NCBI GenBank assembly: GCA_030698395.1
Contig: JAUYKW010000026.1
Coordinates: forward strand, 12,797-76,796
Source of the DNA: a bacterium
GTDB lineage: Bacteria; Patescibacteriota; Patescibacteriia; UBA9570
Direction: 5' to 3'
Length of the DNA: 64,000 bases
Of the stretch, positions 6,791 through 62,751 are shown piece by piece. The notes beneath the pieces are model-generated. The model ran no database searches and was not told the DNA's origin. It saw only the letters and a list, made by a program, of their open reading frames with translations. A program made the translations under genes and the position numbers. Each line of letters begins with the position of its first letter. Position 1 is the first letter of the stretch.

Positions 6791-6968
6791 ATAATGATTA
6801 TAGCATAGTTATTAATTGTATCCGCATTCTAACCATTGACAAAACTGGTTTTTTAGTGTATGCTTCTTGCGCGTTAGTAGAGAAAGCTGCCATCCCGGTA
6901 GTAGTTCCTACCCAAGGAACTTGCTCTCTCCCCGAGAGTTTTTCTTCGAACCGCAGAAGGAAACACTG

Positions 6969-7238
6969 ATGCTGAAGTTGAATATGCTGTTCCGGAAGCT
7001 GATGGGCGCTGTGGCTTTTATCGGGTTCTTCCTGGTCGCCACCCTGGCGCCGGATGTCCCGGGTCACGAGATGTCCACTCTCGCCATGATCGTCGCCTAT
7101 GCGACTGGTCTGGCGATGATCATCATCCCCTTCGTCCTGAACTACTTCCTCGGCTGGGGATGGTTCGACGAGATGGAGAGCGACGACGAGATCGACACAA
7201 GGGAAGATCTCGAAACGAACGAGACCTGGTCGAAGTAG
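6969..7238 (+). CDS. small 2-TM membrane protein with acidic C-tail, on a high-GC islet
   Basis: SD AAGGA lies 7 nt upstream of the ATG at 6969. There are two hydrophobic helices, and the tail reads GWGWFDEMESDDEIDTREDLETNETWSK. A GC hairpin terminator follows. Local GC is far above that of the flanks. Confidence 0.5.
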   Translation: MLKLNMLFRKLMGAVAFIGFFLVATLAPDVPGHEMSTLAMIVAYATGLAMIIIPFVLNYFLGWGWFDEMESDDEIDTREDLETNETWSK

Positions 7239-7263
7239 ACCGAACCCCCGTCCGAAAGGGCTG

Positions 7264-7308
7264 CCGCCTCTGGAGATCGCGCGATGCGATCGTTTGTACA
7301 GAGGCGGC
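7264..7308 (+). terminator. GC-rich hairpin (GCCGCCTCTG ... CAGAGGCGGC) after the small TM gene
   Basis: 10-bp perfect stem read from the sequence. Confidence 0.45.
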
Positions 7309-7333
7309 GGCTACCCAACTTTTATATATTCCG

Positions 7334-7357
7334 ATTCCCAATTTGGGAATTTTTTTA
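7334..7357 (+). terminator. intrinsic terminator ATTCCCAA-T-TTGGGAAT followed by T7
   Basis: Perfect 8-bp stem followed by TTTTTTT. Confidence 0.5.
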
Positions 7358-7422
7358 TTTTCAATTTCGTGGATTGTTATAAATATATTTTCTTATTCTT
7401 TTTAATTCATATTCATTCCGAA

Positions 7423-7668
7423 TTATTCTGTCATGAAAACGTGGTTGCCATGCGAAATGATTCCAATTATTTTTATTACCCCATCTTGTAACTGCAGATT
7501 TATATGATCGAACAATTGTTGATATGGAATTTGATTTTGGTGAAACATTAGAATAAAAATTTTATTTGTTACAGAATCGTTTCGTTTTTGGGTAGAGACG
7601 TTGCATGCAACGTCTCTACGACGATCATTAATCACAATGATCCCGTGTACATGATTTGGCATTATCAC
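7423..7668 (-). pseudogene. degraded HUH (IS200/IS605 Y1 or RAYT-like) transposase fragment
   Basis: The ORF begins exactly at MPNHVHGIIVI (HuH motif). The upstream region and the catalytic Tyr region are missing. It contains a REP-like palindrome. The surrounding 7.3-7.7 kb is AT-rich junk. Confidence 0.35.
7592..7619. repeat. 28-bp perfect palindrome GTAGAGACGTTGCATGCAACGTCTCTAC (REP-like, variant centre)
   Basis: Shares GTAGAGAC/GTCTCTAC arms with the palindromes at 19348 and 25259. Confidence 0.6.
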
Positions 7669-7852
7669 AAATGCTCATTAATTAATATATCAAAAAATAC
7701 ATTTTATACAAAAAACCGCTCATTATAATATGAAGCGATCTTTCAAAAAAATTCTGGAGGAAGCCCATGTGTATGTCATGCTGGGAATGAACCCACACGA
7801 TCATGTTCACACGAGCAATCCTCGTTACTGGTTCACTACCGCGGCTGCGACT

Positions 7853-8029
7853 CTACCAGAGGTACGTATTCTCAGTCCGAGACCGATCTTCTGCGTCAGG
7901 ATCATTCTCTTTCGCGTAATCGTCTGCCCAGTCCTGAGCCACAGCACCCAAGACCTTCGCGAAGAAAATCATGGTACCCAGGGACGCAACGCTAGCGCCA
8001 ACTTGCGCCAGCAACACAACAACAGTCAT
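7853..8029 (-). CDS. small 1-TM membrane protein with acidic C-tail, on a high-GC islet
   Basis: GGAG lies 6 nt upstream of the ATG at 8029. The protein is MTVVVLLAQVGASVASLGTMIFFAKVLGAVAQDWADDYAKENDPDAEDRSRTENTYLW. The tail resembles that of the 6969 gene. Confidence 0.45.
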   Translation of the reverse strand: MTVVVLLAQVGASVASLGTMIFFAKVLGAVAQDWADDYAKENDPDAEDRSRTENTYLW

Positions 8030-8365
8030 CTTCAGCTCCACAATACGCAGGTTCTGGAAGGAACTGCGGTAGGATTAACGAGGATTGGCTATGTAGCCAA
8101 AAAAAATTTTACTATATTAATAATATTTGTCAATAGTATTTTTTAGATAAAAATAAAAAACGACCGGTTCTGATTTCAGCAATGGTCGTGAAAGCTACAA
8201 ATTCAGTTGTTAAGTTTATGGGTACCTGTGACATTCAAAATGATTATCACAGGCGTTCCTCCTTGCAGCGTCAACCGCCAGAACGAACTAGCCCGTGGTG
8301 CATCAGTTTGAAGCCGAAATAAATCGAGCTCCTAACATCATTACACCACGAGCATCGTCCCAGCT

Positions 8366-8512
8366 TTACTCCTTCGGCTTCAGTCGATTTTCTTCGTACA
8401 CCGGATCGGTCCGGGCCCGATACATCATGAATGCTGCCAGACCGAGCGAGCCACCGATGAAAACGGTAATCAGGAGCAGAGTTAACAGGGGCGAGTTCTC
8501 GATGAATGTCAT
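8366..8512 (-). CDS. small 1-TM membrane protein with charged C-tail, on a high-GC islet
   Basis: Strong SD GGAGGA lies 5 nt upstream of the ATG at 8512. The protein is MTFIENSPLLTLLLITVFIGGSLGLAAFMMYRARTDPVYEENRLKPKE. Confidence 0.5.
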   Translation of the reverse strand: MTFIENSPLLTLLLITVFIGGSLGLAAFMMYRARTDPVYEENRLKPKE

Positions 8513-8595
8513 AACAGTCCTCCATAGACAGATATTATCGAGATGCACACCTTATTAAATAATCCGCTATCTGTAAAGTTCACAAGAATCATGAA

Positions 8596-9540
8596 GTGTC
8601 GTACAATAGTTATATGACTGTAAATAAATTAATTATAGAATTTCTAGAATACTTAGAAATTGAGCGCAATCGTTCTGCTCAAACTATTAAAAATTATGAT
8701 TATTACCTGAAAAGGTTCCTAAAACTTTCAAAAGTTAAAACTCCGCAAGATATTACTCAAGATAAGGTAAGAAAATATCGTCTACAATTAAACCGTATCA
8801 CCAACCCAAATACAGGAGAACCTCTTAAGAAAAAAACTCAAAATTATCACATGATTGCACTGCGAGCTTTTCTAAAGTATCTCGCTAAACGAGATATCAA
8901 ATCAATGGCAGCAGAAAAAATTGAATTAGCCAAACAAGAAGATCGTCAAATCGAATTTCTAGATGGTAGTGAACTTGAACGACTACTAGAAGCTCCACTT
9001 CAAGTAAAAGGTAATGAAATTATAAAATTACGAAATAAAGCAATCTTAGAACTGTTATTTTCTACAGGATTACGTGTTTCAGAATTAGCGCATTTAAAAA
9101 TTTCTGATATCAATTTAAAACGCGAAGAATTCTCTGTGCGTGGTAAAGGCGGTAAAGTAAGAATAGTATTTTTATCCGAACAAGCCAGATACTGGCTAAA
9201 AAAATATCTAGATAAAAGAACTGATATTTCGCCATACATGTTCGTTGCCCATGATCGCGCTCAATCAGCTCGTGAACAAACTGATAGCGCACCAATTACA
9301 TCACGATCCATTGAGCGTATGGTGAGTAAATATGCTAGAGTTGCCGGCATTATGAAAAAAATCACTCCACATACACTACGTCATAGTTATGCTACTGATC
9401 TACTACGTAATGGCGCAGATATTCGATCTGTTCAAAGTATGCTGGGTCACTCTTCTATTACCACAACTCAAGTTTATACTCACGTTACGGATCAACAATT
9501 AAAAAAGATCTATAAAAAATTCCACAACAAGAAGACATAG
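8596..9540 (+). CDS. tyrosine site-specific recombinase, XerC/XerD family
   Basis: R...HTLRHSYAT...GHSSITTTQVYTHV catalytic box. It lies next to the accessory junk region. Confidence 0.85.
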   Translation: MSYNSYMTVNKLIIEFLEYLEIERNRSAQTIKNYDYYLKRFLKLSKVKTPQDITQDKVRKYRLQLNRITNPNTGEPLKKKTQNYHMIALRAFLKYLAKRDIKSMAAEKIELAKQEDRQIEFLDGSELERLLEAPLQVKGNEIIKLRNKAILELLFSTGLRVSELAHLKISDINLKREEFSVRGKGGKVRIVFLSEQARYWLKKYLDKRTDISPYMFVAHDRAQSAREQTDSAPITSRSIERMVSKYARVAGIMKKITPHTLRHSYATDLLRNGADIRSVQSMLGHSSITTTQVYTHVTDQQLKKIYKKFHNKKT

Positions 9541-19347: not shown

Positions 19348-19387
19348 AAATAAGTAGAGACATGCCATGGCATGTCTCTACTTATTT
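19348..19387. repeat. 40-bp perfect REP-like palindrome AAATAAGTAGAGACATGCCATGGCATGTCTCTACTTATTT
   Basis: Perfect dyad verified base by base. It lies between convergent genes. Confidence 0.7.
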
Positions 19388-19416: not shown

Positions 19417-19992
19417 TTACAATCCTAGAAACACCCTCGCATATCCTACGGCTGTAGGATGTATACCAGCAAAGCCAGTTGCTAATGCTATAGCATCATC
19501 GTTGCCGTTATTATTCACATCTCCACATAAAATTAATGTTCCAAACAAACCATTTGAAATGGAAGATTTTTTATTTGACATTAATTTCGTTTTAAGCGAA
19601 TATTTAGCCACACTTTTTTCGAAATATGCCACCGCTTGTGTGATTCCTGTAAAGGAAACACCTAATGAGAGGACAGAGAGGTGATATTTTACAGAACATT
19701 GAGAGTCAGTGAAGCTACGGCTGCTTGGGCATACGGCATGGCCAGGCTCCGAACCCGTAAGCGAGAAACAGTCATCAATCCGAGGGACAACATCAGCACC
19801 TGCACGATCCACCGATCCGGACCGTCTAGTGCCGTCCTGATGCAGATCCCAAGGAGAAGAAACGCAACTCCGGTACGGTACCACCTGCACCTTCGAGTGT
19901 ACTCCCACCGTGGAGAACTGCTGGTGCGGAGTATTCTGGCCGACAGCGCCAGAAGCATTCCGAAAGTGAGGAGGAACAAGACCCGAGAACAT
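19417..19992 (-). CDS. uncertain chimeric ORF: AT-rich 3' part (dockerin/FG-GAP-like GDVNNNGNDD) fused to a high-GC 5' part
   Basis: Composition switches abruptly around 19650. The high-GC part (19680-20040) has overlapping ORFs on both strands. Confidence 0.25.
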   Translation of the reverse strand: MFSGLVPPHFRNASGAVGQNTPHQQFSTVGVHSKVQVVPYRSCVSSPWDLHQDGTRRSGSVDRAGADVVPRIDDCFSLTGSEPGHAVCPSSRSFTDSQCSVKYHLSVLSLGVSFTGITQAVAYFEKSVAKYSLKTKLMSNKKSSISNGLFGTLILCGDVNNNGNDDAIALATGFAGIHPTAVGYARVFLGL

Positions 19993-20043
19993 CCTGCACC
20001 AATGGATTTCTCGGGTCGTGTTCTTATTTGCTATAATTAAGGC

Positions 20044-20694
20044 ATGATATTTAAAAACCGTGTAGACGCCGGAAAAAAATTAGCTACCGCTCTGACTGAT
20101 TATAAAAATCAAAAAGATACTATGGTTGTAGCTCTACCCAGAGGAGGGGTGATATTAGGCTATGAAGTTGCAAATAAATTAAACTGCCCACTAGATATTG
20201 TAGTGCCACGCAAAATAGGTGCACCCGGAAATGAAGAATTCGCAATCGGAGCAATCGCCGAAGATGGAGAAGGTTTTTTTGATGACAACACGATTTACAG
20301 CTCCAACGTATCACAAGAATACATCGATAAAACTGTAAAAACAGAAAAAGTAGAAGCAAATCGTAGACTTGTCACCTACCGAGGAAATCGTCCACCACTA
20401 GACTTAACAGACAAAACAGCAATCATTGTAGATGATGGCATAGCAACTGGATACACCATGCTAGCAGCAATTGAATCTGTAAAAATAAAAAATGCAAAAA
20501 AAATTATTGTAGCTGTACCAGTAACTGCCAAGGATTCTATAGAAACAATTATACCCAAAGTTGATGAAGTTATTTACCTAGATGCCCCAATCTTCTTTGG
20601 TGCAGTTGGTATGTTCTATACCGAGTTTAACCAAACTACAGACGAAGAAGTAATCGCTTTATTGCAAAAAGCTCAAAAGCTCTCTACCACGTAA
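20044..20694 (+). CDS. phosphoribosyltransferase-family protein
   Basis: IIVDDGIATGYTM PRPP-binding motif. Confidence 0.7.
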   Translation: MIFKNRVDAGKKLATALTDYKNQKDTMVVALPRGGVILGYEVANKLNCPLDIVVPRKIGAPGNEEFAIGAIAEDGEGFFDDNTIYSSNVSQEYIDKTVKTEKVEANRRLVTYRGNRPPLDLTDKTAIIVDDGIATGYTMLAAIESVKIKNAKKIIVAVPVTAKDSIETIIPKVDEVIYLDAPIFFGAVGMFYTEFNQTTDEEVIALLQKAQKLSTT

Positions 20695-22030: not shown

Positions 22031-22136
22031 GAGTATAACAGTATACCGTTCTTTTAGAGACTAATCAATTGTAATCTCTACAAGGACGGATCGAACATGA
22101 ACATGATAAATTATCAGTGGTTGTACGCCCTGGATC

Positions 22137-22547
22137 CTACTGTTTCATTCCCACCTGGATCGCATCAACCACATCCTGATGCATCAACGGTCCCTCCGCC
22201 AAGCCAGCATACACACCCTTGCAGAACTGAATCTCCAGTTCATGAAGAGCAACTCTCAAAATCAGGCTCAGCTCGTAATCATAGATCTGCGTCAGATCTG
22301 GGAATTGCGGGATACCCCATCGACTATCCAACTTCCCCGAGAATGGATTAGTGCCCGTCAGGTTGATATGATCCGTAATCACCATCAGCCGGTGTGGCTG
22401 AAAGGATGCATTGGTGAGTACCAACACCGAGGCACCCCACAACCGCATGACCCGTACTGCATGCACCACGACGTTCGCGAAATGACCTTCGTACAGATGC
22501 ACTCGACCACTGAGAACGACCACTGCGACATCATATGGCCTAATCAT
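22137..22547 (-). pseudogene. truncated purine nucleoside phosphorylase (PNP/MTAP family) fragment, high-GC
   Basis: VLVLTNAS...ITDHINLTGTNPFSG...GVYAGLAEGP match the PNP core. Both the N- and C-terminal regions are absent, leaving 136 aa against an expected roughly 270. Confidence 0.5.
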
Positions 22548-22644
22548 TGTCTATCCCATCCTGTATTATTGATGAACATTAAGGTTAGCTCGATAATATT
22601 ATAGAAAAACTTAATTCAGGTCAATTTATTTTCCTAACCAATTC

Positions 22645-23229
22645 ATGTACACTGTATTGATGAGTAAATTTTTAGAAGACCTCCAAGCAGAAGGCCGGTG
22701 GCATCAATGGATGCGCAAATATAAAGATTTGATATTTCAACCTTTTGCCAAATTCTGTGTAGTATTAAAAATTTCGCCTTCAGCTGTTACGATAGCTGGT
22801 TTTATATTGGGAATACTTAGTATCTGGTTACTATTCATTAATTACTGGTACTTTGTGCTAGCTATGTTTTTAAGTTTATTTTTAGATGGCGTTGATGGTG
22901 CATTAGCTAGACACACAAATACAGTATCTAAATTTGGCAAAACTTTCGATTATTACGTTGATACTATATTAATGATCCTCATGTTTAGTGCTTTAACGTT
23001 TTGGTTAGGTGAACCATTATGGATAATTGGCCTTGATATTTATGGATTAGTTTTCTTATCGAACATGATAGCAGGTTCTCCTTTACGACCAGTTCCAGGC
23101 AGAACAGCAATGCTAATTCCTTGCATGTTAGGGTTACCGAAAGTTGGATTATTTCTACTATCTTTGTACGGTATAACTATGGCCATTGCTTTAACAAGGC
23201 ATTTACTAACAAAACAGACAAAAATGTAA
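22645..23229 (+). CDS. CDP-alcohol phosphatidyltransferase family protein
   Basis: LDGVDGALARHTN...G...DYYVD signature. Confidence 0.75.
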   Translation: MYTVLMSKFLEDLQAEGRWHQWMRKYKDLIFQPFAKFCVVLKISPSAVTIAGFILGILSIWLLFINYWYFVLAMFLSLFLDGVDGALARHTNTVSKFGKTFDYYVDTILMILMFSALTFWLGEPLWIIGLDIYGLVFLSNMIAGSPLRPVPGRTAMLIPCMLGLPKVGLFLLSLYGITMAIALTRHLLTKQTKM

Positions 23230-23258
23230 GGACATGCCATGGCGTGTCCTTACATTTT
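23221..23258. repeat. REP-like palindrome AAAATGTAAGGACATGCCATGGCGTGTCCTTACATTTT (1 mismatch) followed by T-run
   Basis: Shares the GACATGCCATGGC core with the other copies. It lies between convergent genes. Confidence 0.6.
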
Positions 23259-23813: not shown

Positions 23814-23935
23814 AGTAATAGCATAACATACCTAAAAACATTGACTAGGTAATCCAAAACTAGTAATGTGTTGGGCACGATCTGTACATTTCACCGCCCA
23901 AATATTACAAAAGGGCACAAACCGAGAGGATTCTC

Positions 23936-25111
23936 ATGGGTACCCAGCACGTTAGTCGCAATGTCATCATCGTCGGCGATTCTCCCAACAAGAACGCTGG
24001 CGAACATCATCCCTTCACCATGGTAGACGGAGCCATCTACCACACTGACATGGTCGGCATCGATCCCCGAGCCAGCGCCGTCAACTACGGCCTCGCACGC
24101 ATCTCCGGCTATGGAGCCTGGCGCCGTCCCGAGGACGATACGCACTGGATGTTCCGCCCGGAAGACCACATGACGCGCATTCACCAGAACGCTTTGGCCA
24201 TTCCCGTTCTGGGAGATTTCCCGAGCACAAACATGCTCGTAGACTGGTCCATAACCAGTCTGGGCCTCGGCATCCCTCACCTCACGCGGGCCAAGGACGT
24301 CTACGGACGGACGCTAGTGGTGCAGGGTGGCGTCGCTCTCGGTGTTGGAACCCGCGGTCACGGCCACGTGATCAACTTCACGCGAGACCTGACAGAATAT
24401 GTTCCGGCTGAAGGGCTGGATCTGCTGTTCCCTGGCATGCTCTGTCGCCGACCCAACATTTTCATGGGTCGCCCCTTCGAAAAGGCGGCCGGCAACTACG
24501 ACTTGGCCCACTTCTGGAAAGGCGTCGTTGCCAAGGGACTAGGCTTCAACGAAATTCTGATGCTCAACTGGAACGGCACCGAAATCGCCGAGACCAGTGG
24601 TAGCATCCCGGTAGCCATCGTCCGCCTGTCGGACAAGAAAATTCAGATGCGTGTGCCACGCCTGGAATCCGGCCGACTGAATTCGATCACCACTGACACA
24701 CTCATCTACTTGGCCCATAAGCTGGGCTGGGAAGTAATCGTGAACCAACGCCTGACATTGGATCACCTGATCCATGCGGACGAACTCTGGGTGGCTGGTT
24801 CCTGGAGTGGTCTTGCTAGTGTGAGGAACATTAGCTTGGACCAACGCTGGATGCGTGAAGCACCCATCCTTCCACCTGAGATCTTCAGAGACGGAGTAGG
24901 GCCGGCATACAAAGCGTGGCTGGATGAAAATTTTCAGCCCGTGAATGCTCGCAAACTGGGCTGGACCCCTTCCTTCGCACCTGGTCCACTCGGTACTCAG
25001 CTCCGCGAACTCTACTGGGGCGTGGTGCGCAACCGCCCAGAATTCCGGCGCATCGATCGTCCCAGCAACTGGAATGTCAAGGTGAACCCGATCGTCCCAA
25101 ACACGGAATAA
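23936..25111 (+). CDS. aminotransferase class IV (BCAT/D-amino-acid aminotransferase fold)-like protein, high-GC
   Basis: FRPEDHMTRIHQNA, NWNGTEIAETSGS, ITTDTLIYLAHKLGWEV and ADELWVAGS resemble fold-type IV PLP enzymes. GC is roughly 58 percent, against about one-third in the backbone. Confidence 0.5.
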   Translation: MGTQHVSRNVIIVGDSPNKNAGEHHPFTMVDGAIYHTDMVGIDPRASAVNYGLARISGYGAWRRPEDDTHWMFRPEDHMTRIHQNALAIPVLGDFPSTNMLVDWSITSLGLGIPHLTRAKDVYGRTLVVQGGVALGVGTRGHGHVINFTRDLTEYVPAEGLDLLFPGMLCRRPNIFMGRPFEKAAGNYDLAHFWKGVVAKGLGFNEILMLNWNGTEIAETSGSIPVAIVRLSDKKIQMRVPRLESGRLNSITTDTLIYLAHKLGWEVIVNQRLTLDHLIHADELWVAGSWSGLASVRNISLDQRWMREAPILPPEIFRDGVGPAYKAWLDENFQPVNARKLGWTPSFAPGPLGTQLRELYWGVVRNRPEFRRIDRPSNWNVKVNPIVPNTE

Positions 25112-25258
25112 AGATCTAGGAGGACACCTGGAGCCACGTACCAATGTACGTAGCAACAGGTGGGGGAAATTGTTATGCATGCATAACGTTTCCCCGCCTC
25201 CCCAATGGTTATTAGCTACTTAATAGCTATCGGTGAGAATCAAAATAACTTAAATAAA

Positions 25259-25296
25259 AAACAGTAGAGACATTCCATGGCATGTCTCTACTGTTT
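25259..25296. repeat. REP-like palindrome AACAGTAGAGACATTCCATGGCATGTCTCTACTGTT (1 mismatch)
   Basis: Lies between convergent genes. Same family as the 19348 copy. Confidence 0.65.
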
Positions 25297-26392: not shown

Positions 26393-26580
26393 ATGTTTAT
26401 AAATCCAATATTTATCAATAAAATTACTAACAAATATACCCTATAATAGGGCTTTTGTCAATACCTAAAGCATAAATAGATAACTTCCGGCCAATAAGAA
26501 CCATATATGATTCGCATTGGGGGAAGACGGAACCAGCTGTTTGAGAGCGTAATTCCGTCTGCCGTGTCCTCCTCACGGCA

Positions 26581-27012
26581 TCATGCCGACTGTTGGCACG
26601 TGAACACGAAGTGCGTCCTGTCCCATTTCACTTCCAGTCTGGTACCGACCTGAATGTTCAGCTCATCTCGAATCCTGCTGGGAATCGTCAAACGACGCTG
26701 ACCGTCCGTATTTACGGGTTCACCAGCGAAGGCCTGAACTCCGTCCAGAATCCGACCAGCCGGCGTCTGGACCATCTCGATCCACTCGGACATAGGAAAC
26801 ACATGGAGTGAACCATCCCGGAACGAAGTCATGTAGAACGTTTCGTCCGGTCCGTACTCTCCGTACAGTGGATTCATGAAGTGATTGGCAAGCATCAGAC
26901 GACCCTTCTGATCGACTGTCGCAGTTCGGACACCAAAAATATAAACACACATCTTGCACATCCTCCTCTTCTGTTGGGTGCAGAAACTCCCAGGGGACGG
27001 GAGTAGTTCCAA
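26581..27012 (-). CDS. MraZ-like protein (orphan, high-GC)
   Basis: Two DxxGR-type motifs (VDQKGRLMLANHF and TDGQRRLTIPSRIRDEL). The likely start is near 26952-26961. It is not adjacent to mraW. Confidence 0.5.
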   Translation of the reverse strand: MELLPSPGSFCTQQKRRMCKMCVYIFGVRTATVDQKGRLMLANHFMNPLYGEYGPDETFYMTSFRDGSLHVFPMSEWIEMVQTPAGRILDGVQAFAGEPVNTDGQRRLTIPSRIRDELNIQVGTRLEVKWDRTHFVFTCQQSA

Positions 27013-27084
27013 GGGATAGGAACGTCGTTGATGCCACAGTGGCCCCTATAGATTAAAGACCATATACGGCCTTGTCAACACAAA

Positions 27085-41505: not shown

Positions 41506-41772
41506 ATTTTTACTTCTGGCTTATAAAAATAACTAGACAAGATACACTTTTAATACATAAATGTCAATTCCTTTCTAACCACTATATTATATCAACTTGA
41601 CCAGAAAATATACATCGTGTAGTATTTTTAAGCTGATTATACAGCGTGGCCCGTTCGCCCGCCTGCAACGCTTTGCGTAGCGTAGCGTAGCAATGCGGGC
41701 AGGTCTAGTTAATCCTTTCGCAACAATTCATAATTAAATTACGTTTTGTTGTGAACGGATTAGAGCAAAAAT

Positions 41773-42018
41773 ATGTTCTATACTTACGTTCTAAAAAGCC
41801 ATAAAGACGGAAAGCTATACATCGGATGGACAAATAACCTCCAACTACGTATAAAACTCCATAACTATGGTAAAGTGAAATCAACCAAAAATCGCAGACC
41901 TTTAAATCTAGTTTATTATGAAGCTTGTCTAAATAAGACAAACGCAATTGCGAGAGAAAAAGCTCTGAAGACTGGTTTCGGAAGGTCGTATTTAAAAAAA
42001 CGGATAAGCGATTTATAA
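41773..42018 (+). CDS. GIY-YIG nuclease-family small protein
   Basis: YTYVLKSHKDGKLYIGWTNNLQLRIKLHN GIY-YIG signature. It ends 3 nt before tRNA-Glu. Confidence 0.75.
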   Translation: MFYTYVLKSHKDGKLYIGWTNNLQLRIKLHNYGKVKSTKNRRPLNLVYYEACLNKTNAIAREKALKTGFGRSYLKKRISDL

Positions 42019-42021
42019 CAT

Positions 42022-42093
42022 GGCCCGTTCGTCTAGTGGTTAGGACATCAGGTTTTCATCCTGAAAACAGGGGTTCAATTCCCCTACGGGCTA
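42022..42093 (+). tRNA. tRNA-Glu (anticodon TTC)
   Basis: Acceptor GGCCCGT/ACGGGCT (G1-U72), anticodon loop UUUUCAU, T-loop TTCAATT. Confidence 0.75.
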
Positions 42094-42190
42094 CATGGAA
42101 AAATTCACGTCTGAAAGACGTGGATTTTTATTAAATTGGATTTTTTCTCTTACCTATGTTACTGTCTTTATGATTAGCATAAGCACTGAA

Positions 42191-45747: not shown

Positions 45748-47784
45748 ATGACAAATCAAGAATCAAAAAAGAAACAACCTCCAGTTGATGAGAAGAAATC
45801 TACAGAAAAAAAGGTTATTGAAGAACAACCTACAGAAAAAACATCTCCTGAAAAAAAGAAATTCCCTATCAAAAAAACTCTTGGCATTATCGCCGGAAGC
45901 ATCGTCGTGCTTATACTACTTATTATTGTTGGTTATTTTATTTATGAATACACCTACCAAGATAAAATTTATCCAGGCGTAACGTTAAACAATGAAGACA
46001 TGTCTGGAAAAACCTATTCAGACATAACTAGTGAAATAAATACCTATAAAGCATCATTAGATAATACAGGTTTAAATTTTAGCTACGAAGAAAAAGAATA
46101 TTCTATCAAACCACAAACAAAGGATGAAGAAAGTGGTGATATTATGTATTTAGTTAATATTAATACTGACGAAACAGCACAGGCAATATATGGTATAGGT
46201 AGAAGCGATGATGAGCAAACAAATCTAAAAAACAAAGTTAGTGCTTTATTTGGTGGGTATGACGTTACACCAAATTATTCTGTAGATAAAGAAACACTGA
46301 TAGCGTTATTGAGTAACGAATTCAGTGAATTCGAACAACCAGATGAAAATGCTAAACTTAGTTTTTCAGAAAACGGTGAAATACAAATTAGTGACCATAA
46401 AGATGGCTACACTTTTGATTGGGAATCATATCTGGATGAAGTGGAAAGCAATTTAAACAGTTTTGAACCTGTTAATATTAAGCTAGAACTTACTGCTAAT
46501 CCTGCACCAATTACTACGGAAACTGCCGAAAATATGCGTACCGAAATTGAGGCTATCTCAGATCTCTCTCCAATAACACTTACTTATGAAGATCAAACAT
46601 TTGAAATTGAAAGTGAAGAATTTAATTCTTGGTTAATGCTCACAGAAAATGGAGTTAGTTTTGATGAAGAACTTGTTGATTCATCACTCGATACTATTGC
46701 AGGTAAAATTGATATTCCCGTTAAAGAAGGACGCTTTAGCTTAGACATAGTAAACGATGTGGTGGAACTAACTCAATTCGAAGAAGGCGCTGATGGACTG
46801 GAAGTAAATATCGAAAAAACCATTACAGAAGTAAACGCATCAATTCTTGATAATAAACAAAGTAAATCAGAGCTTATAGTTGAAGTGACAACTCCCCGCG
46901 TAACACCAGGCAACCTAAACGAACTAGGAGTTAAAGAAATCTTAGGAACCGGAACTACTAGCTTTGCCGGAAGCCCATATAACCGTATTGGTAATATTCA
47001 AAAAGGTGCAGATTTATTAAATGGTTTGTTAATAGCCCCTGGAGAAACTTTCTCATTAATGAAATTACTATCACCAGTTGATATTGCTCATGGTTGGCTT
47101 TCAGAATTAGTTATTAAAGGAGATAAATTGGAAAAAGAAGCTGGCGGTGGGCTATGCCAGATTGGTACAACGGTTTTTAGAGCAACTATGATGTCTGGAT
47201 TAGAAGTAGTAGAACGACGTAATCATTCTTGGGCAGTATCATATTATAATTACAATGGAAAAGCTGGAGTTGATGCAACCATTTATGAACCATCTCCTGA
47301 TTATAAATTTAAAAATGATACTGAAAATTATATATTGATCCGTAGTAGAATAGAAGGTAGTGATATATACTTTGAATTCTGGGGTACATCTGATGGTAGA
47401 AAAGGTAGCTTTACTGAGCCTACAAACTACGGCTATGTATATCCTGGTCCAACCGAAGAAATAGTTGATCCTAGTTTACCGCCGGGTGCCAGAAATTGTC
47501 CTACTCATGCTTTTACCGGAGTTAGCGCATCATTTGATTATATTATTGAACGTCCAGATGGTTCCATAGACACAACTAATTACACTAGTGTATACAAATC
47601 ACGATCTGCCGTGTGTATGGTTGGTCCAGAAGCTGAAAAAACACCTACTGAAGAAACTACTCAAGATATTACTGAAACAGTCGACACAACGACTCCAGTT
47701 GTAACTCCGGAAGTTGATGTTCCTACCGAAACAACAAAAGATACAACTAAGAAAGATACGACAAAAAAGAAAAAGAAGAATTAA
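45748..47784 (+). CDS. VanW-domain protein with N-terminal TM anchor
   Basis: GGGLCQIGTTVFRA VanW signature. Confidence 0.7.
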   Translation: MTNQESKKKQPPVDEKKSTEKKVIEEQPTEKTSPEKKKFPIKKTLGIIAGSIVVLILLIIVGYFIYEYTYQDKIYPGVTLNNEDMSGKTYSDITSEINTYKASLDNTGLNFSYEEKEYSIKPQTKDEESGDIMYLVNINTDETAQAIYGIGRSDDEQTNLKNKVSALFGGYDVTPNYSVDKETLIALLSNEFSEFEQPDENAKLSFSENGEIQISDHKDGYTFDWESYLDEVESNLNSFEPVNIKLELTANPAPITTETAENMRTEIEAISDLSPITLTYEDQTFEIESEEFNSWLMLTENGVSFDEELVDSSLDTIAGKIDIPVKEGRFSLDIVNDVVELTQFEEGADGLEVNIEKTITEVNASILDNKQSKSELIVEVTTPRVTPGNLNELGVKEILGTGTTSFAGSPYNRIGNIQKGADLLNGLLIAPGETFSLMKLLSPVDIAHGWLSELVIKGDKLEKEAGGGLCQIGTTVFRATMMSGLEVVERRNHSWAVSYYNYNGKAGVDATIYEPSPDYKFKNDTENYILIRSRIEGSDIYFEFWGTSDGRKGSFTEPTNYGYVYPGPTEEIVDPSLPPGARNCPTHAFTGVSASFDYIIERPDGSIDTTNYTSVYKSRSAVCMVGPEAEKTPTEETTQDITETVDTTTPVVTPEVDVPTETTKDTTKKDTTKKKKKN

Positions 47785-47842
47785 TCATAAACAAAATCGT
47801 ATCTACTATTTATTGTGTCGTTTTTAATTTTTAGTTTCAAAA

Positions 47843-47957
47843 ATCCCCGAAGTCTGTAGGCAAGAGAACTTGCGGAAGGGATGCATAGAGCTTGCGCCTT
47901 ATATATCCTTCCTACACGTTCCCATGCTCGTCGTGCCTACAGGAGTCAGGGATTTTT
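47843..47957 (+). repeat. large nested inverted-repeat element (24-nt arms AAAAATCCCCGAAGTCTGTAGGCA / TGCCTACAGGAGTCAGGGATTTTT) ending in a U-run
   Basis: Arms pair with 3 mismatches. An inner GGAAGGGAT...ATCCTTCC hairpin is present. It sits at the left edge of the largest high-GC island. Confidence 0.4.
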
Positions 47958-48193
47958 GCTTTTAAATTTATGCCGATCGAATACAAATTATTCAAACGAC
48001 CAAATAGTATAGCGGACTCTTGCCTATTTGTCAAGAGGTATGATAAAGCCAAGCATCAATAATGTACGTATTTAAGCTAACATTAGCAAAATTCTATGTT
48101 TTTAAACTCTTTATAAGAACGTATCAATAAATACGAACTTGACTCATATCTAGTTATTCACTACGGTGATGGTCCGGTTGCACTCATAGCTAT

Positions 48194-48721
48194 GTGTGCG
48201 ATGACTGGGCCTTGAAAAACACTCACGAAGCCACTGTGCTTCTAGCGGAGACGAAATTGCAGACCGACGCCCCAACCCCTGACCTCACCCCCCGCCCTCA
48301 GAACTCTACGAAGACGCTCCCGACCGCACAGATCATCGCCGAAATCGTGATGGCTACTGGCGAAGACCGCAACCGCCTCGTGGTCATGCTGGCCATCGAG
48401 ATCGAGCTCCGGCGGATCGCGTACGAGCTGCTCACGCTCGCGCCGAACAAGATCCACGACGTCGGACAGCTGACCCCCTGCTTGGAACAGGCCGAAGCAC
48501 TGGACGAACTGATCCTCAAGCACCAGCTCGATGAGCGTGTGACCGACGTGATCGTACTGCTCGATGAGCGTGTGACCGACTCGTCAACCATCATCCGGGC
48601 CGCGAACATGCTCGCCCAGGCCGCGAACCGGATCGCGACGCAGGCCAAGGAGGTGGCGGATGATCTGCGCAAGGATCGCCTCAAGCCCCCCGAGCCGTTC
48701 GTAGCGATCAACGGCTGCTGA
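48194..48721 (+). CDS. high-GC hypothetical helical protein, member A of a tandem paralog trio
   Basis: DRNRLVVMLAIEIELRRIA segment is shared with member B. It contains a 21-bp direct duplication (LDERVTD twice). Confidence 0.45.
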   Translation: MCDDWALKNTHEATVLLAETKLQTDAPTPDLTPRPQNSTKTLPTAQIIAEIVMATGEDRNRLVVMLAIEIELRRIAYELLTLAPNKIHDVGQLTPCLEQAEALDELILKHQLDERVTDVIVLLDERVTDSSTIIRAANMLAQAANRIATQAKEVADDLRKDRLKPPEPFVAINGC

Positions 48722-49002
48722 CTCACAAGTCAACCGGACAGGAGGAGTTCCGGACGAAATCACACTAGCAGGCATGGTAGCAATACCCACCCGCAAAGAG
48801 ATCTCGTCCGGTACCCCGCACACAATCTTTTTCAACATCTTCAACTTATTTCATCTATTCCAAGACGCGATAAATCGCGTCTTTACTCTTTTTCAATACA
48901 TACTGCCCTTGACTTTAGGGTCTTTTTTTACTACGGTTGTAGCCTGGTCGCAAGCAAATGTAACCAGATTCCACTGAAACTCTCACCTCCAAAGGAGCAG
49001 AA

Positions 49003-49434
49003 ATGCGCCTTCCCTCCGCGGCAAGCACCATGCTTCGCTGTCACCGCCTTCTCGCCAAGATCGAGCTCACCGACCACAACCGCACCCTGCAGTTGTGTGC
49101 CATCCCGGCACTTCAGGTGGAGCTCTACCGCATTGCGTCTATGATGACGCGACGCGAAGATGTGAGACCTGAACAGGTTCACAAGATTCTCAAGGAGATT
49201 CGCGATATCGTGACTCTCGCCGAAACGCACCAAATGCTGATCGGCAATACGAATGAAATCGAAGATCTCCTCAACCAAGCTGAGGTCCGCGAACTGGCAT
49301 GGTCCGTTGTTCGGCACCTGGTCACCAATGCGATCGATGCATTGGACCTGTACGCTGATCAACTGGACGCCGACGTGGACGTCGAGCTACTGAGTATCGG
49401 CATGATGGCACTCGCTCCGAGTGTCCACGCCTGA
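49003..49434 (+). CDS. high-GC hypothetical helical protein, member B of the paralog trio
   Basis: DHNRTLQLCAIPALQVELYRIA aligns with member A. Confidence 0.45.
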   Translation: MRLPSAASTMLRCHRLLAKIELTDHNRTLQLCAIPALQVELYRIASMMTRREDVRPEQVHKILKEIRDIVTLAETHQMLIGNTNEIEDLLNQAEVRELAWSVVRHLVTNAIDALDLYADQLDADVDVELLSIGMMALAPSVHA

Positions 49435-49746
49435 TCATGCTCAGCTATGGTAGCTCTCCTCCTCCAGAGGGCTAGGCTCCAAGCCATCCGGGGAAGAGTG
49501 TTCGCTGATTCTGCACCGTGCAGGAACATCGACGCTCTCCCCGGATCCTACCCCCCCTGTATATGTAAACCAACTAAATTGCATATAGAGGAAAGAAAAT
49601 AACCCAACAATCGGGTTATTTTTTATTACTAAAAAACATTATTATCAGGTCTCAAATGATTGACAATTACCCTATTTTACATTACGGTTATGGGGCTTTT
49701 CAGTTTGTAAACATCCCATTTCGGGACAATAGAGAGGACCAAATAG

Positions 49747-50166
49747 ATGACTGACCAGTACCTGTCGTGGGCGAGAAATGCTTTGCGGAGCACAGATGAG
49801 AACCTGCGTATCGCATCTACCGTGCCGAACCTGAACACGAACTTTGTCAGACGACTCCTCGTGAGTCGTAACCAGATCAACGTCTTCCTGACCGGTCCGC
49901 TCACGCAGCCGGGACTGGTGACGTTCGACCTGCACATCACCTGCCAGGAAGAACTGGCTGATCTGGTCGCCAAGTTGCTGCACATCTTCGAAGACATCGG
50001 CCACGAGGACATGCTCGAGGCGCAGTATGTGAGCGGCCTGCTCACTTCGGCCGTCGGGCAGACCACAGTCGCTTCAGCACTCTTGCAGAAGGCTCTGCGA
50101 GACGGCGAGGAGATCAAGAAGGTCGAGTCCATCGAAGGACCGTCGATCTGGTCCGCTGGTTGCTGA
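49747..50166 (+). CDS. high-GC hypothetical protein, member C (more distant)
   Basis: Same strand, size and composition as A and B, with weak TDENLRIA similarity. A GC hairpin plus T-run follows at about 50283-50305. Confidence 0.4.
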   Translation: MTDQYLSWARNALRSTDENLRIASTVPNLNTNFVRRLLVSRNQINVFLTGPLTQPGLVTFDLHITCQEELADLVAKLLHIFEDIGHEDMLEAQYVSGLLTSAVGQTTVASALLQKALRDGEEIKKVESIEGPSIWSAGC

Positions 50167-50337
50167 AAAGCGCCACCCGCGGAGGACGGGAATCCAGGGT
50201 GGAACGACTGCAACAAGCATCGTTCTCCCTGGCCCCACCCACACTTGAAATAATTCCTCTTTTTATCTATAATATATTAACAGCGCGCCACTTGGGCGCT
50301 TTTAATTTCATAATTATTCACTTAATTAAAAGTACAT

Positions 50338-51363
50338 ATGATGACTGTAGAACAAATATATAAACTAGGTATAGAATTAGGTATAGAATCAGATCCAAGA
50401 GGAAAAGCATTCGTAAAAAAACAGCTCAAACGAACTCAACTTGAATATGATGAAATGCCAAAAAAGAATAAACAATACTTCGATAAAGAGTATTTGACAA
50501 ATCCTTATTCAGATAGTCGCATTCTCTATACTCCATCGCTAGATCATGAAGTTAAAAAAATATTTGCCGGTATTGATTGTGATGCACCAGAGCTAATGGT
50601 AGCAAATCAACTAGGAGATATTGATTTGGTGCTTTCTCATCATCCAGAAGGTACTGCTCTAGCAGACCTACATACAGTGATGGACCTGCAGGTTGAAATG
50701 CTTGAAAGAGCTGGAGTGCCAATTCATATTGCAGAAAGCTTAATGGACGCAAGAAGTGCAGAGGTAGGCCGAGGAATTCATCCACTCAACGATCAAAAAT
50801 CTGTAGATATAGCCAGAGTACTGAATATACCTTTTATGTGTACACACACCATCACCGACAATATGGTAACAATGTTCTTTGAAGACTTAATAGAAAAAAA
50901 CCGCAAAAAAATTGATACCATTGGCGATATTATGGATATTCTAATGGAAATCCCCGAATATCAAGTAGCTACTCGTCTTAAATCAGGACCAGCGATTTTT
51001 ATTGGTAGCCGTAAACGCCGAACTGGTAGAATTGCCATCACCGAAATGACTGGCGGAACTAATGGTGCTAAAGAAATGTTTGAACAATTATCTCGAGCAG
51101 GAGTTGGCACTGTTATCGGAATGCACATGCGAGAAGACTATAAAACAGAAGCGCAAAAACACCATATTAATGTTATTGTAGCTGGCCACATGTCTTCTGA
51201 TTCACTTGGCATGAATCTATTTTTAGATGAACTTGAAAAGAAAGGTATAGAAATTGTACCAATTGGTGGTCTAATTCGTGCAAAACGTTTTAAAGAAAAA
51301 AAAGCAAGCAAGAAAATTAAACCTAAGAAAAAAAGTACTACAGCAAAAAAGAAAAAGAAATAA
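50338..51363 (+). CDS. Nif3-like (DUF34, dinuclear metal centre) protein with Lys-rich C-tail
   Basis: IDLVLSHHPEG and VIVAGHMSSD resemble conserved His clusters of the NIF3 family. Confidence 0.5.
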   Translation: MMTVEQIYKLGIELGIESDPRGKAFVKKQLKRTQLEYDEMPKKNKQYFDKEYLTNPYSDSRILYTPSLDHEVKKIFAGIDCDAPELMVANQLGDIDLVLSHHPEGTALADLHTVMDLQVEMLERAGVPIHIAESLMDARSAEVGRGIHPLNDQKSVDIARVLNIPFMCTHTITDNMVTMFFEDLIEKNRKKIDTIGDIMDILMEIPEYQVATRLKSGPAIFIGSRKRRTGRIAITEMTGGTNGAKEMFEQLSRAGVGTVIGMHMREDYKTEAQKHHINVIVAGHMSSDSLGMNLFLDELEKKGIEIVPIGGLIRAKRFKEKKASKKIKPKKKSTTAKKKKK

Positions 51364-62559: not shown

Positions 62560-62751
62560 CTACTTTTTCTTTCGCTTTTTTGCCGGTTTACGCTTAGCTA
62601 CTTTCTTTTTAGCTGGTTTTTTCGCAACCTTCTTTTTAGCTGGTTTACGTTTTGCCGGTTTACGCTTAGCTACTTTCTTTTTAGCTGGTTTTTTCGCAAC
62701 CGCCTTTTTAGCTGGCTTACGCTTAGCTACTTTCTTTTTTTTCACTGGCAT
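62560..62751 (-). CDS. histone H1-like Lys/Ala-rich basic repeat protein
   Basis: KKVAKRKPAKK repeats. The DNA carries two exact 72-bp direct repeats. Confidence 0.6.
   Translation of the reverse strand: MPVKKKKVAKRKPAKKAVAKKPAKKKVAKRKPAKRKPAKKKVAKKPAKKKVAKRKPAKKRKKK
62581..62724. repeat. two exact roughly 48-bp units with 72-bp periodicity inside the KAKK-repeat gene
   Basis: TGCCGGTTTACGCTTAGCTACTTTCTTTTTAGCTGGTTTTTTCGCAACC begins at both 62581 and 62653. Confidence 0.6.

Follow-up and report, generated by a model that had tools for sequence, protein, structure and literature searches.

What are three short, GC-rich open reading frames (ORFs), and how did they come to lie next to each other on the plus strand of an AT-rich Patescibacteria genome? 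The ORFs, here called A, B and C, have a VanW-like gene (45748-47784) to their left and the NIF3-ruvB operon (from 50338 on) to their right in a 64,000 nucleotide stretch of contig JAUYKW010000026.1 (assembly GCA_030698395.1), which we call the window and on which all positions are given. The source is a metagenome-assembled genome (MAG; locus tags Q8P90_), and the genes around the trio code for VanW-like, HSP20, NIF3, RuvB and QueA proteins. Minimal genomes are typical of Patescibacteria (candidate phyla radiation, CPR), which are commonly assumed to spend their lives attached to other cells. In the original prediction the block was taken for a tandem family of diversifying paralogues. Our analysis leads to a different view: A, B and C are probably horizontally acquired, independently expressed single-gene cassettes resembling the morons of phages, which occupy a variable intergenic hotspot.

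The three ORFs lie on one strand exactly where they had been placed, and their high GC content, put at roughly 60%, was also found (62.1% for A, 56.7% for B and 58.1% for C, compared with 36.8% for the window). The GC content is periodic over the codon positions in all three plus-strand frames (chi-square p = 2e-15 for A, 2e-9 for B and 1e-8 for C); the values at codon positions 1, 2 and 3 (GC1, GC2, GC3) are 0.66/0.39/0.81 in A, 0.67/0.35/0.68 in B and 0.59/0.40/0.76 in C. In a sliding three-phase profile, the periodicity sets in near 48280, 49000 and 49720 and stops at the three stop codons; in the GC-rich stretches past the stops it is gone (p 0.7-0.97). A, B and C are protein genes of the plus strand and not RNAs. 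ORFs of 142, 143 and 179 amino acids on the minus strand, which had been named as what might overturn the prediction if codon periodicity supported them, are mirror frames. For A and C these have a GC2 higher than GC1, unlike genes, and GC1 above GC2 together with the periodicity favours the plus frames. GC1 and GC3 of B are about equal, so that GC content alone cannot pick the strand; here the plus strand is favoured by the Shine-Dalgarno (SD) sequence with ATG, by promoter and terminator, and by base frequencies at the codon positions that almost coincide with those of A. Periodicity is lacking over the first ~30 codons of the maximal ORF A (p = 0.17), so that A probably starts later, at TTG 48257 (154 amino acids), at GTG 48236 (161 amino acids) or further downstream. 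TTG 48257 has a GGAG seven bases upstream, and GTG 48236 is the start chosen in one Logan gene call.

All three genes have signals of their own. The sequence TTGAC-N18-TACGGT has exactly three matches in the window (48139, 48909 and 49660), all inside this block, with 0.69 matches expected even if one mismatch is allowed. These promoter-like sites are located 55-94 nucleotides upstream of the maximal ORFs, a small hairpin opens each of the three leaders, and an SD sequence with an ATG is present in B and C. Each stop codon is followed by a GC-rich, aperiodic stretch of 75-125 nucleotides that folds into a long, very stable hairpin (dG -32.9, -57.2 and -34 kcal/mol, z -3.3, -5.5 and -3.0 for A, B and C, respectively). 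In A and B this stretch is followed by AT-rich DNA with a conventional intrinsic terminator. The modules from promoter to terminator measure ~650-770 bp each and are tightly packed. Because the genes have their own promoters and are separated by terminators, the trio is neither an operon nor, as had been considered, one larger gene in pieces; at the sequence level the units have what defines an autonomous unit, namely an own promoter, an own factor-independent terminator (which for C may be part of the NIF3 leader) and a single gene. The common promoter suggests that the three genes may be co-regulated. The hairpin after the stop is preceded by GGAGGA in A (20 nucleotides past the stop) and in C (15 nucleotides past the stop); in B a hairpin loop with the sequence CCUCCUCC occupies the equivalent position. 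A function of GGAGGA as SD sequence for a downstream ORF was rejected, as no start codon follows it. Likewise, a panhandle between the 5′ and 3′ ends of the transcripts was discarded: perfect complements of 8-9 bp are present in A and C, but their RNAduplex energy does not differ from that of shuffled sequences (z about 0) and they are attributable to chance. Evasion of a sequence-specific RNase was rejected too, as no 3- or 4-mer is notably avoided.

The composition of the trio is foreign to this genome. Native genes in the window have a GC3 of only 0.15-0.38. Isoleucine is encoded by ATC in 28 of 31 cases in the trio (48 of 329 in native genes) and lysine by AAG in 13 of 13 (64 of 286), while TTA is used for none of the 61 leucines (162 of 335); TTA, ATA and AAA codons are all absent. 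The proteins of the trio are rich in alanine and leucine and have more arginine than lysine, the reverse of most native proteins checked, and all three genes end with TGA, whereas TAA terminates 39 of the 55 native genes tabulated (71%). The foreign codon, amino acid and stop codon usage, together with the GC-rich untranslated 3′ parts, argues for a long stay in a GC-rich genome and therefore for horizontal acquisition, as had been proposed, rather than for codon-level selection in place.

The ORFs had been regarded as a distinct block. They are real, but the block is not special: the window contains at least ten GC-rich islands, all but one with a single gene, which make up 9.1% of its bases. 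Seven further islands have 48-58% GC (Table 1), and in most of them a consensus promoter precedes a single complete ORF. Of the 22 TTGACN-N16-18-TANNNT sites in the window, eight stand directly before islands. Their genes encode small membrane proteins, a fragment with a purine nucleoside phosphorylase (PNP) domain, a class-IV (BCAT-like) aminotransferase and an MraZ/AbrB-like protein. No convincing ORF and no Rfam match were found for the island at 19653-20049. A 3′ module that recurs in several islands is composed of the stop codon, 8-26 nucleotides, (A)GGAGGA, a long stable hairpin and a C/A-rich tail. GGAGGA within 30 nucleotides past the stop is present in four of nine island genes and in none of 65 native genes (Fisher p = 1e-4; the number 65 is an estimate, 55 native genes having been tabulated). 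The four are A, C, the aminotransferase-like and the MraZ-like gene, with GGAGGA 8-20 nucleotides after the stop and no start codon thereafter; the 3′ modules of the latter two have AGGAGGACAC and CCCCAATG in common. A full-text search of the literature did not reveal a description of such islands.

Among the relatives that could be retrieved, the closest is a Patescibacteria MAG that originates from vent chimneys of the Southwest Indian Ridge (L003; PMC9769843) and whose NIF3 is 75% identical. Upstream of NIF3 it has an insert of ~540 bp with 59% GC (L003:65-601) that does not align to unit C, with a GGAGGA at L003:499 and a strong hairpin (z -4.0), and the leader hairpin of NIF3 is kept (GCGCCAC..GGCGC TTTTAAT). 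A MAG labelled Saccharibacteria is among the more distant relatives. In L004, L005 and L006, which are more distant, the site has no GC-rich island: a tRNA-Leu lies just upstream of NIF3 in two of them (L005, L006) and a tRNA-Ala with other genes in the third (L004). As the vent MAG carries an unrelated insert and these distant relatives have none, the site upstream of NIF3 behaves as a hotspot with exchangeable GC-rich cargo.

Two observations concern the same comparison. The contig of the vent MAG ends inside or just beyond the insert, as expected of a strain-variable region, and the strand of the ORF in the insert is ambiguous (90 amino acids on the plus or 122 on the minus strand, in mirror frames). 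NIF3 homologues with 43-45% identity are found on metagenome contigs with 70-74% GC (L007, L008), which indicates that high-GC organisms carry this type of NIF3.

A, B and C are strict orphans. A word-indexed search of 5.8 billion protein clusters with all three returned only self matches, as did a full HMMER search of 1.84 billion representatives, for which A was the only query. No match to A-C was found in IMG/VR viral contigs or, with blastn, in phage and plasmid DNA. The best Pfam matches (E = 0.017, FliG_N, and E = 0.047) are both far below cut-off, the best PADLOC match has E = 0.042, and PHROGs and NCBIfam gave none. Thus, the statement that no known domain is recognisable and that the genes are novel was borne out by the profile libraries and homologue searches. 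The additional characterization as effector/immunity-like or phage-like is pure conjecture: no known defence, immunity, toxin-antitoxin or phage family matches the trio in profile hidden Markov model (HMM) searches, and PHROGs, PADLOC, the immunity families of Pfam, viral contigs and phage genomes all were without a match. GenBank lists B as hypothetical protein MDP3971153, in a version of 134 amino acids, and C as hypothetical protein MDP3971154, which forms a protein cluster of one.

The products are predicted to be small (~14-17 kDa), acidic and all-alpha, with isoelectric points (pI) of 4.8 (A), 5.3 (B) and 4.9 (C), and inspection revealed no evident membrane-spanning segments. For A, a Pro/Thr-rich disordered N-terminus followed by a four-helix bundle is predicted, the bundle with a predicted local distance difference test score (pLDDT) of 80-92 over 105 residues in a single-sequence AlphaFold 2 (AF2) model; the model of B has six helices and a pLDDT of 57. 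Up-down four-helix bundles of a generic kind, such as the CheA P1/HPt domain, de novo designed bundles and helical proteins like Borrelia OspC/DbpA, share only 9-17% sequence identity, no histidine motif of the HPt type was seen, and Foldseek gave no match with E < 0.05. The four-helix fold is too common for functional inference. We tentatively consider, as one possible function, that the trio encodes strain-variable accessory proteins that act via protein-protein binding, for instance as immunity, anti-defence or regulatory partners directed toward a GC-rich host or its mobile elements. A role in binding macromolecules in such host- or mobile-element-related interactions is speculative, and we are only weakly inclined to think that the products are not enzymes.

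Phage morons are autonomous units of promoter, gene and terminator with atypical composition that are located between conserved genes, a concept of Hendrix and Juhala. The units described here resemble them in having a single gene and an own sigma-70-type promoter, in A and B an own terminator, and in a foreign composition and unrelated cargo that differs between related genomes. They differ in that they are located on a bacterial chromosome with no phage genes nearby, that they are GC-rich compared with the resident genes, that at least ten units lie in 64 kb and that several of them have the GGAGGA-hairpin module at the 3′ end, which does not belong to the definition of a moron; they do not lie in a prophage, and no PHROG, phage or viral match was obtained. 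With horizontally acquired orphan islets they share foreign GC3, codon, amino acid and stop usage and a variable location, but no mobility gene, tRNA attachment site or flanking repeat accompanies them, each is a single complete translation unit and no donor was found. Arrays of orphan immunity genes associated with a recombinase (rAID) reportedly occur in Bacteroidales. Both these and integron cassettes are likewise tandem small unrelated genes of heterogeneous origin with a structured non-coding element right after the stop; here no integrase or recombinase is present by the trio, the units have their own promoters with terminators between them, and no immunity family matches. Hairpin terminators without a U-tract, called I-shaped, occur in high-GC Actinobacteria. 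The stable GC-rich hairpins after the ORFs have no adjacent U-run either, which would fit 3′ ends of a donor type that moved together with the genes, but here a conventional AT-rich terminator or a hairpin with T-run follows 20-60 nucleotides on, GGAGGA precedes and a C-rich tail follows.

Several known types of mobile element were rejected. Against an integron cassette speak the own promoters and the terminators in between; the pair RYYYAAC...GTTRRRY was not found, by visual inspection only, and no integrase lies within 10 kb of the trio. A diversity-generating retroelement would have long template and variable repeats, and none are present in the block; no reverse transcriptase was called among the genes near the trio, and none came to notice in the remainder of the window, which was not domain-scanned. 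Terminal inverted repeats and target-site duplications of a transposon are absent.

For the moron-like units the most likely course of events would be that transcribed GC-rich segments came by horizontal transfer from a GC-rich donor, either a poorly sampled lineage or a mobile element, and that they are expressed from AT-rich promoters of the recipient type. The same process would have given rise to at least seven further GC-rich single-gene islands in the window.

A number of observations weigh against this interpretation. No close homologue of A-C (above roughly 60-70% identity) was found in a sampled high-GC donor, and the genes cannot have come recently from a well-sampled high-GC bacterium; an old transfer should have ameliorated toward AT. 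This leaves two options: a donor lineage that is itself divergent and unsampled, or something by which the segments are kept GC-rich. The island genes with recognizable domains are only distant members of their families: the BCAT-like gene scores 65 bits against a cut-off of 279 bits, the MraZ-like gene ~23 against 168 bits, and the best matches of the PNP fragment, with ~42% identity, come from several phyla (at most 43% identity to plasmids and chromids and at most 76 bits against PDB sequences). We therefore dropped the attempt to identify the donor through the PNP-like and BCAT-like genes, as identities reach only 38-43% in diverse phyla. Every island begins right after an AT-rich consensus promoter in the style of the recipient, which would not be expected of random integration. 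The recurrent 3′ module hints at a common system or a donor convention. Gene callers disagree on A: one Logan run called an ORF of 84 amino acids on the minus strand over its 3′ end, a call that is contradicted by the plus frame periodicity in the overlap, and five candidate starts of A were compared, with no protein of NCBI origin matching any of them. Finally, we infer the expression of the units from their signals.

The promoter-adjacent placement is the main reason why a dedicated cassette system is kept as the leading rival. According to this explanation, which we regard as unlikely, a lineage-specific mechanism of capture and/or maintenance, comparable to integrons or to the rAID arrays, would place foreign ORFs behind resident promoters, and the 3′ module would be a recombination or processing site. 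The architecture is indeed repeated in at least eight islands, each directly after a consensus promoter, the 3′ module is specific for islands and also present in the unrelated insert of the vent MAG, and two genomes carry different cargo at one site. There are also tandem arrays, A-B-C and I1-I2-I3, the latter adjoining an Xer-like recombinase (8596-9540), but no recombinase, transposase or reverse transcriptase adjoins A-B-C. Moreover, no attC-like R''/R' core was seen by eye in the 3′ regions, for which no systematic motif search was made, the units have neither direct repeats nor target-site duplications in common, the definition of the module is loose, it is missing or changed in B and in the islands I1, I2 and I5, and the evidence comes from two genomes only. 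A more far-reaching proposal, to which we likewise give little credence, is that the clade stocks its tiny genome, in a way not described before, with single GC-rich ORFs that stem from one particular GC-rich partner, be it a host or the mobile elements of a host. The ORFs would be placed one at a time behind resident consensus promoters at recurrent intergenic hotspots, each being tagged or stabilised by the 3′ module; the trio would be what one such hotspot carries at present, and the module would serve as a signal for recombination or RNA processing.

The paralogy of the trio, on which the original prediction was built, found no support in the comparison of the proteins. The alignment of A and B was reproduced by BLASTP (23% identity over 60 residues, E = 0.024 in a single comparison), with the local motif A[IL]x[IV]ELxRIA common to both, but it is not significant in Smith-Waterman comparisons with 2000 composition-preserving shuffles (p = 0.054). 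A-C and B-C gave nothing (BLASTP E 6.7 and 13; p = 0.91 and 0.76), their Smith-Waterman scores lying under the shuffle mean. We therefore consider it quite improbable that A, B and C are tandem paralogues of one fast-diversifying family that were duplicated in place and have diverged past easy recognition. The features common to the trio are suggestive of paralogy at most: all three have the same rare promoter hexamers and are alike in size, acidity and helical character, the base-by-codon-position profiles of A and B resemble each other closely, and A and C both have a Gly-Cys C-terminus (...NGC and ...AGC). On the other side, the units have no similarity at the DNA level except for the promoter hexamers, their GC3 values are unequal, and the mRNA structure of B differs sharply from that of A and C. 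As to the folds, a confident four-helix bundle was obtained for A and a low-confidence all-helical model for B. A diversifying family could not be substantiated either, since the similarity among the three is not significant and homologues are lacking; the only hint of diversification is the unrelated GC-rich insert at the same site in the relative.

GC-rich islands in AT-rich genomes are a classic signature of RNA genes. The units could accordingly be structured non-coding RNA genes and the ORFs by-products of GC-richness, which would agree with the numerous overlapping ORFs on both strands, with the strong structure of all three 3′ stretches and with the unusual structure of the B mRNA (z -4.6 for the coding region against dinucleotide shuffles and z -7.4 for the whole unit). 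We consider this very unlikely: the coding regions of A and C, unlike that of B, fold no better than shuffles (z +0.7 and -1.0), the three-base periodicity coincides with the ORFs and is absent beyond them, B and C have an SD sequence and ATG, and A is predicted to fold confidently as a protein. Furthermore, Rfam found only four tRNAs at the gathering threshold in the window and nothing credible at E up to 10 in 47700-50400. That the mosaic stems from a chimeric assembly or from binning contamination that fused high-GC reads to a low-GC contig, as abrupt GC switches, orphan genes and the MAG source might suggest, is hardly conceivable, because contigs of two separate runs contain identical DNA (a 14.7-kb stretch with the trio is base-for-base identical in an independent Logan assembly, and a 916-nucleotide contig from a different sequencing run covers both AT/GC junctions of unit A), because GC-rich and AT-rich DNA alternate six times inside 2.3 kb with a functional-looking signal at each junction, and because the relative shows the same phenomenon at the same site.

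Table 1. Positions of the features of the GC-rich units, their boundaries and the further islands in the window.
Feature	Position	Strand	Details
Nested long hairpin, left boundary of the block	47838..47958	.	Inverted repeat; directly after the VanW-like gene
Promoter-like site, unit A	48139..48167	+	TTGACT-N17-TACGGT
5′ leader palindrome/hairpin, unit A	48180..48199	+	GCACTCATAGCTATGTGTGC; inverted repeat
ORF A	48194..48721	+	Maximal ORF, 175 amino acids
Exact direct duplication in ORF A	48526..48580 (48526-48547 + 48559-48580)	+	22 bp
3′ module, unit A	48741..48817	+	GGAGGA 48741-48746, hairpin 48744-48817, C/A-rich tail CCCCGCACACAA
Intrinsic terminator, unit A	48862..48893	+	9-bp stem, then TACTCTTTTT
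Promoter-like site, unit B	48909..48937	+	TTGACT-N17-TACGGT
5′ leader hairpin, unit B	48944..48967	+	CTGGTCGCAAGCAAATGTAACCAG; whole-unit fold
ORF B	49003..49434	+	143 amino acids; SD AAGGAG 6 nucleotides before ATG
3′ module, unit B	49450..49546	+	Hairpin with CCUCCUCC loop ~49450-49473; long near-perfect hairpin 49486-49546; then CCUACCCCCCC
Intrinsic terminator, unit B	49596..49629	+	Palindrome AAAATAACCC...GGGTTATTTT and T-run
Promoter-like site, unit C	49660..49688	+	TTGACA-N17-TACGGT
ORF C	49747..50166	+	139 amino acids; SD-like GAGAGGA before ATG
3′ module, unit C	50181..50240	+	GGAGGA 50181-50186; stable hairpin, inner stem 50194-50232; then CCCCACCCACAC
NIF3 promoter-like site and GC hairpin/T-run	50245..50299	+	TTGAAA-17-TATAAT 50245-50273; hairpin and T-run 50285-50299, ahead of the NIF3-ruvB operon
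Seven further islands	6860-7373, 7746-8104, 8246-8554, 19653-20049, 22114-22579, 23870-25212, 26469-27054		48-58% GC compared with 37%
Small membrane protein genes in islands	6969-7238; 7853-8041(-); 8366-8512(-)		
PNP-domain island gene	22137-22547	-	Residues 74-194 of a 274-position PNP model; own SD and ATG
Class-IV aminotransferase-like (BCAT-like) island gene	23936-25111		Very divergent; catalytic-lysine motif kept
MraZ/AbrB-like island gene	26581-26952	-	Score below the profile cut-off
3′ module sites	25119, 26572(-), 48741, 50181, 8262(-), 19970; L003:499		

Inside ORF A, the internal duplication that had been described as 21 bp long is exact over 22 bp; its copies are spaced by 33 bp and hence in frame, and LDERVTD is encoded twice. 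A second repeat of 21 bp or 7 amino acids is located nearby (48595-48636, RAANMLA/QAANRIA). Many short perfect hairpins, such as CCAATGCGATCGATGCATTGG and GGCACTCGCTCCGAGTGTCC, occur within the B coding region.

Both elements that had been reported to bound the block are present. The left nested hairpin (dG -48 kcal/mol, z -4.3) has no matching Rfam family. A near-consensus promoter on the minus strand (TTGACA-17-TATACT, 48034-48006) is directed at it, and a T-run follows the hairpin on that strand. The hairpin could be a bidirectional terminator, or a putative, unannotated small RNA of about 160 nucleotides (47830-48034) could be made on the minus strand from this promoter-like site. The GC hairpin with T-run on the right was found by the terminator scan. 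Because it lies downstream of the promoter-like site of NIF3 itself, it may belong to the NIF3 leader instead of unit C; the hairpin and the ensuing TTTTAAT..TCATAATTATT are kept in the vent MAG.

Elsewhere in the window, a family of palindromes resembling repetitive extragenic palindromic (REP) elements, GTAGAGACATGCCATGGCATGTCTCTAC, is present in four copies as terminator-like hairpins (7586-7620, 19348-19382, 23220-23254 and 25258-25292). One copy adjoins a remnant of 81 amino acids on the minus strand (7423-7668) with the motif MPNHVHGII (HUH), like that of a REP-associated tyrosine transposase. In the region 41597-42094, a GC-rich stretch comes after a promoter-like site and opens with the same 11 bases as tRNA-Glu (42022), TGGCCCGTTCG, and a small protein that by eye resembles GIY-YIG nucleases is encoded between this 11-base copy and the tRNA (41773-42018); the arrangement is reminiscent of an endonuclease insertion by which the 5′ portion of the tRNA gene was duplicated. 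Tandem repeats of 72 bp (96% identical) and a third partial copy are located at 62578-62739, where the minus strand would encode Lys/Ala-rich repeats. Several native proteins, such as NIF3 and the VanW-like protein, have lysine-rich tails.

Little is understood of the ways in which Patescibacteria acquire new functions. In the 64 kb examined here, complete genes with individual promoters and a very different, GC-rich composition account for ~9% of the DNA. If they are expressed and strain-variable, such units would show where symbiont and partner interact, be it in immunity, anti-defence or host manipulation, and the GC contrast would allow a simple and scalable search for genes of this kind across CPR genomes. 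Should the 3′ module be part of a dedicated mechanism of capture or expression, the islands would represent a new type of gene-cassette system; otherwise, a supposed paralogous family is replaced by three unrelated acquired genes.

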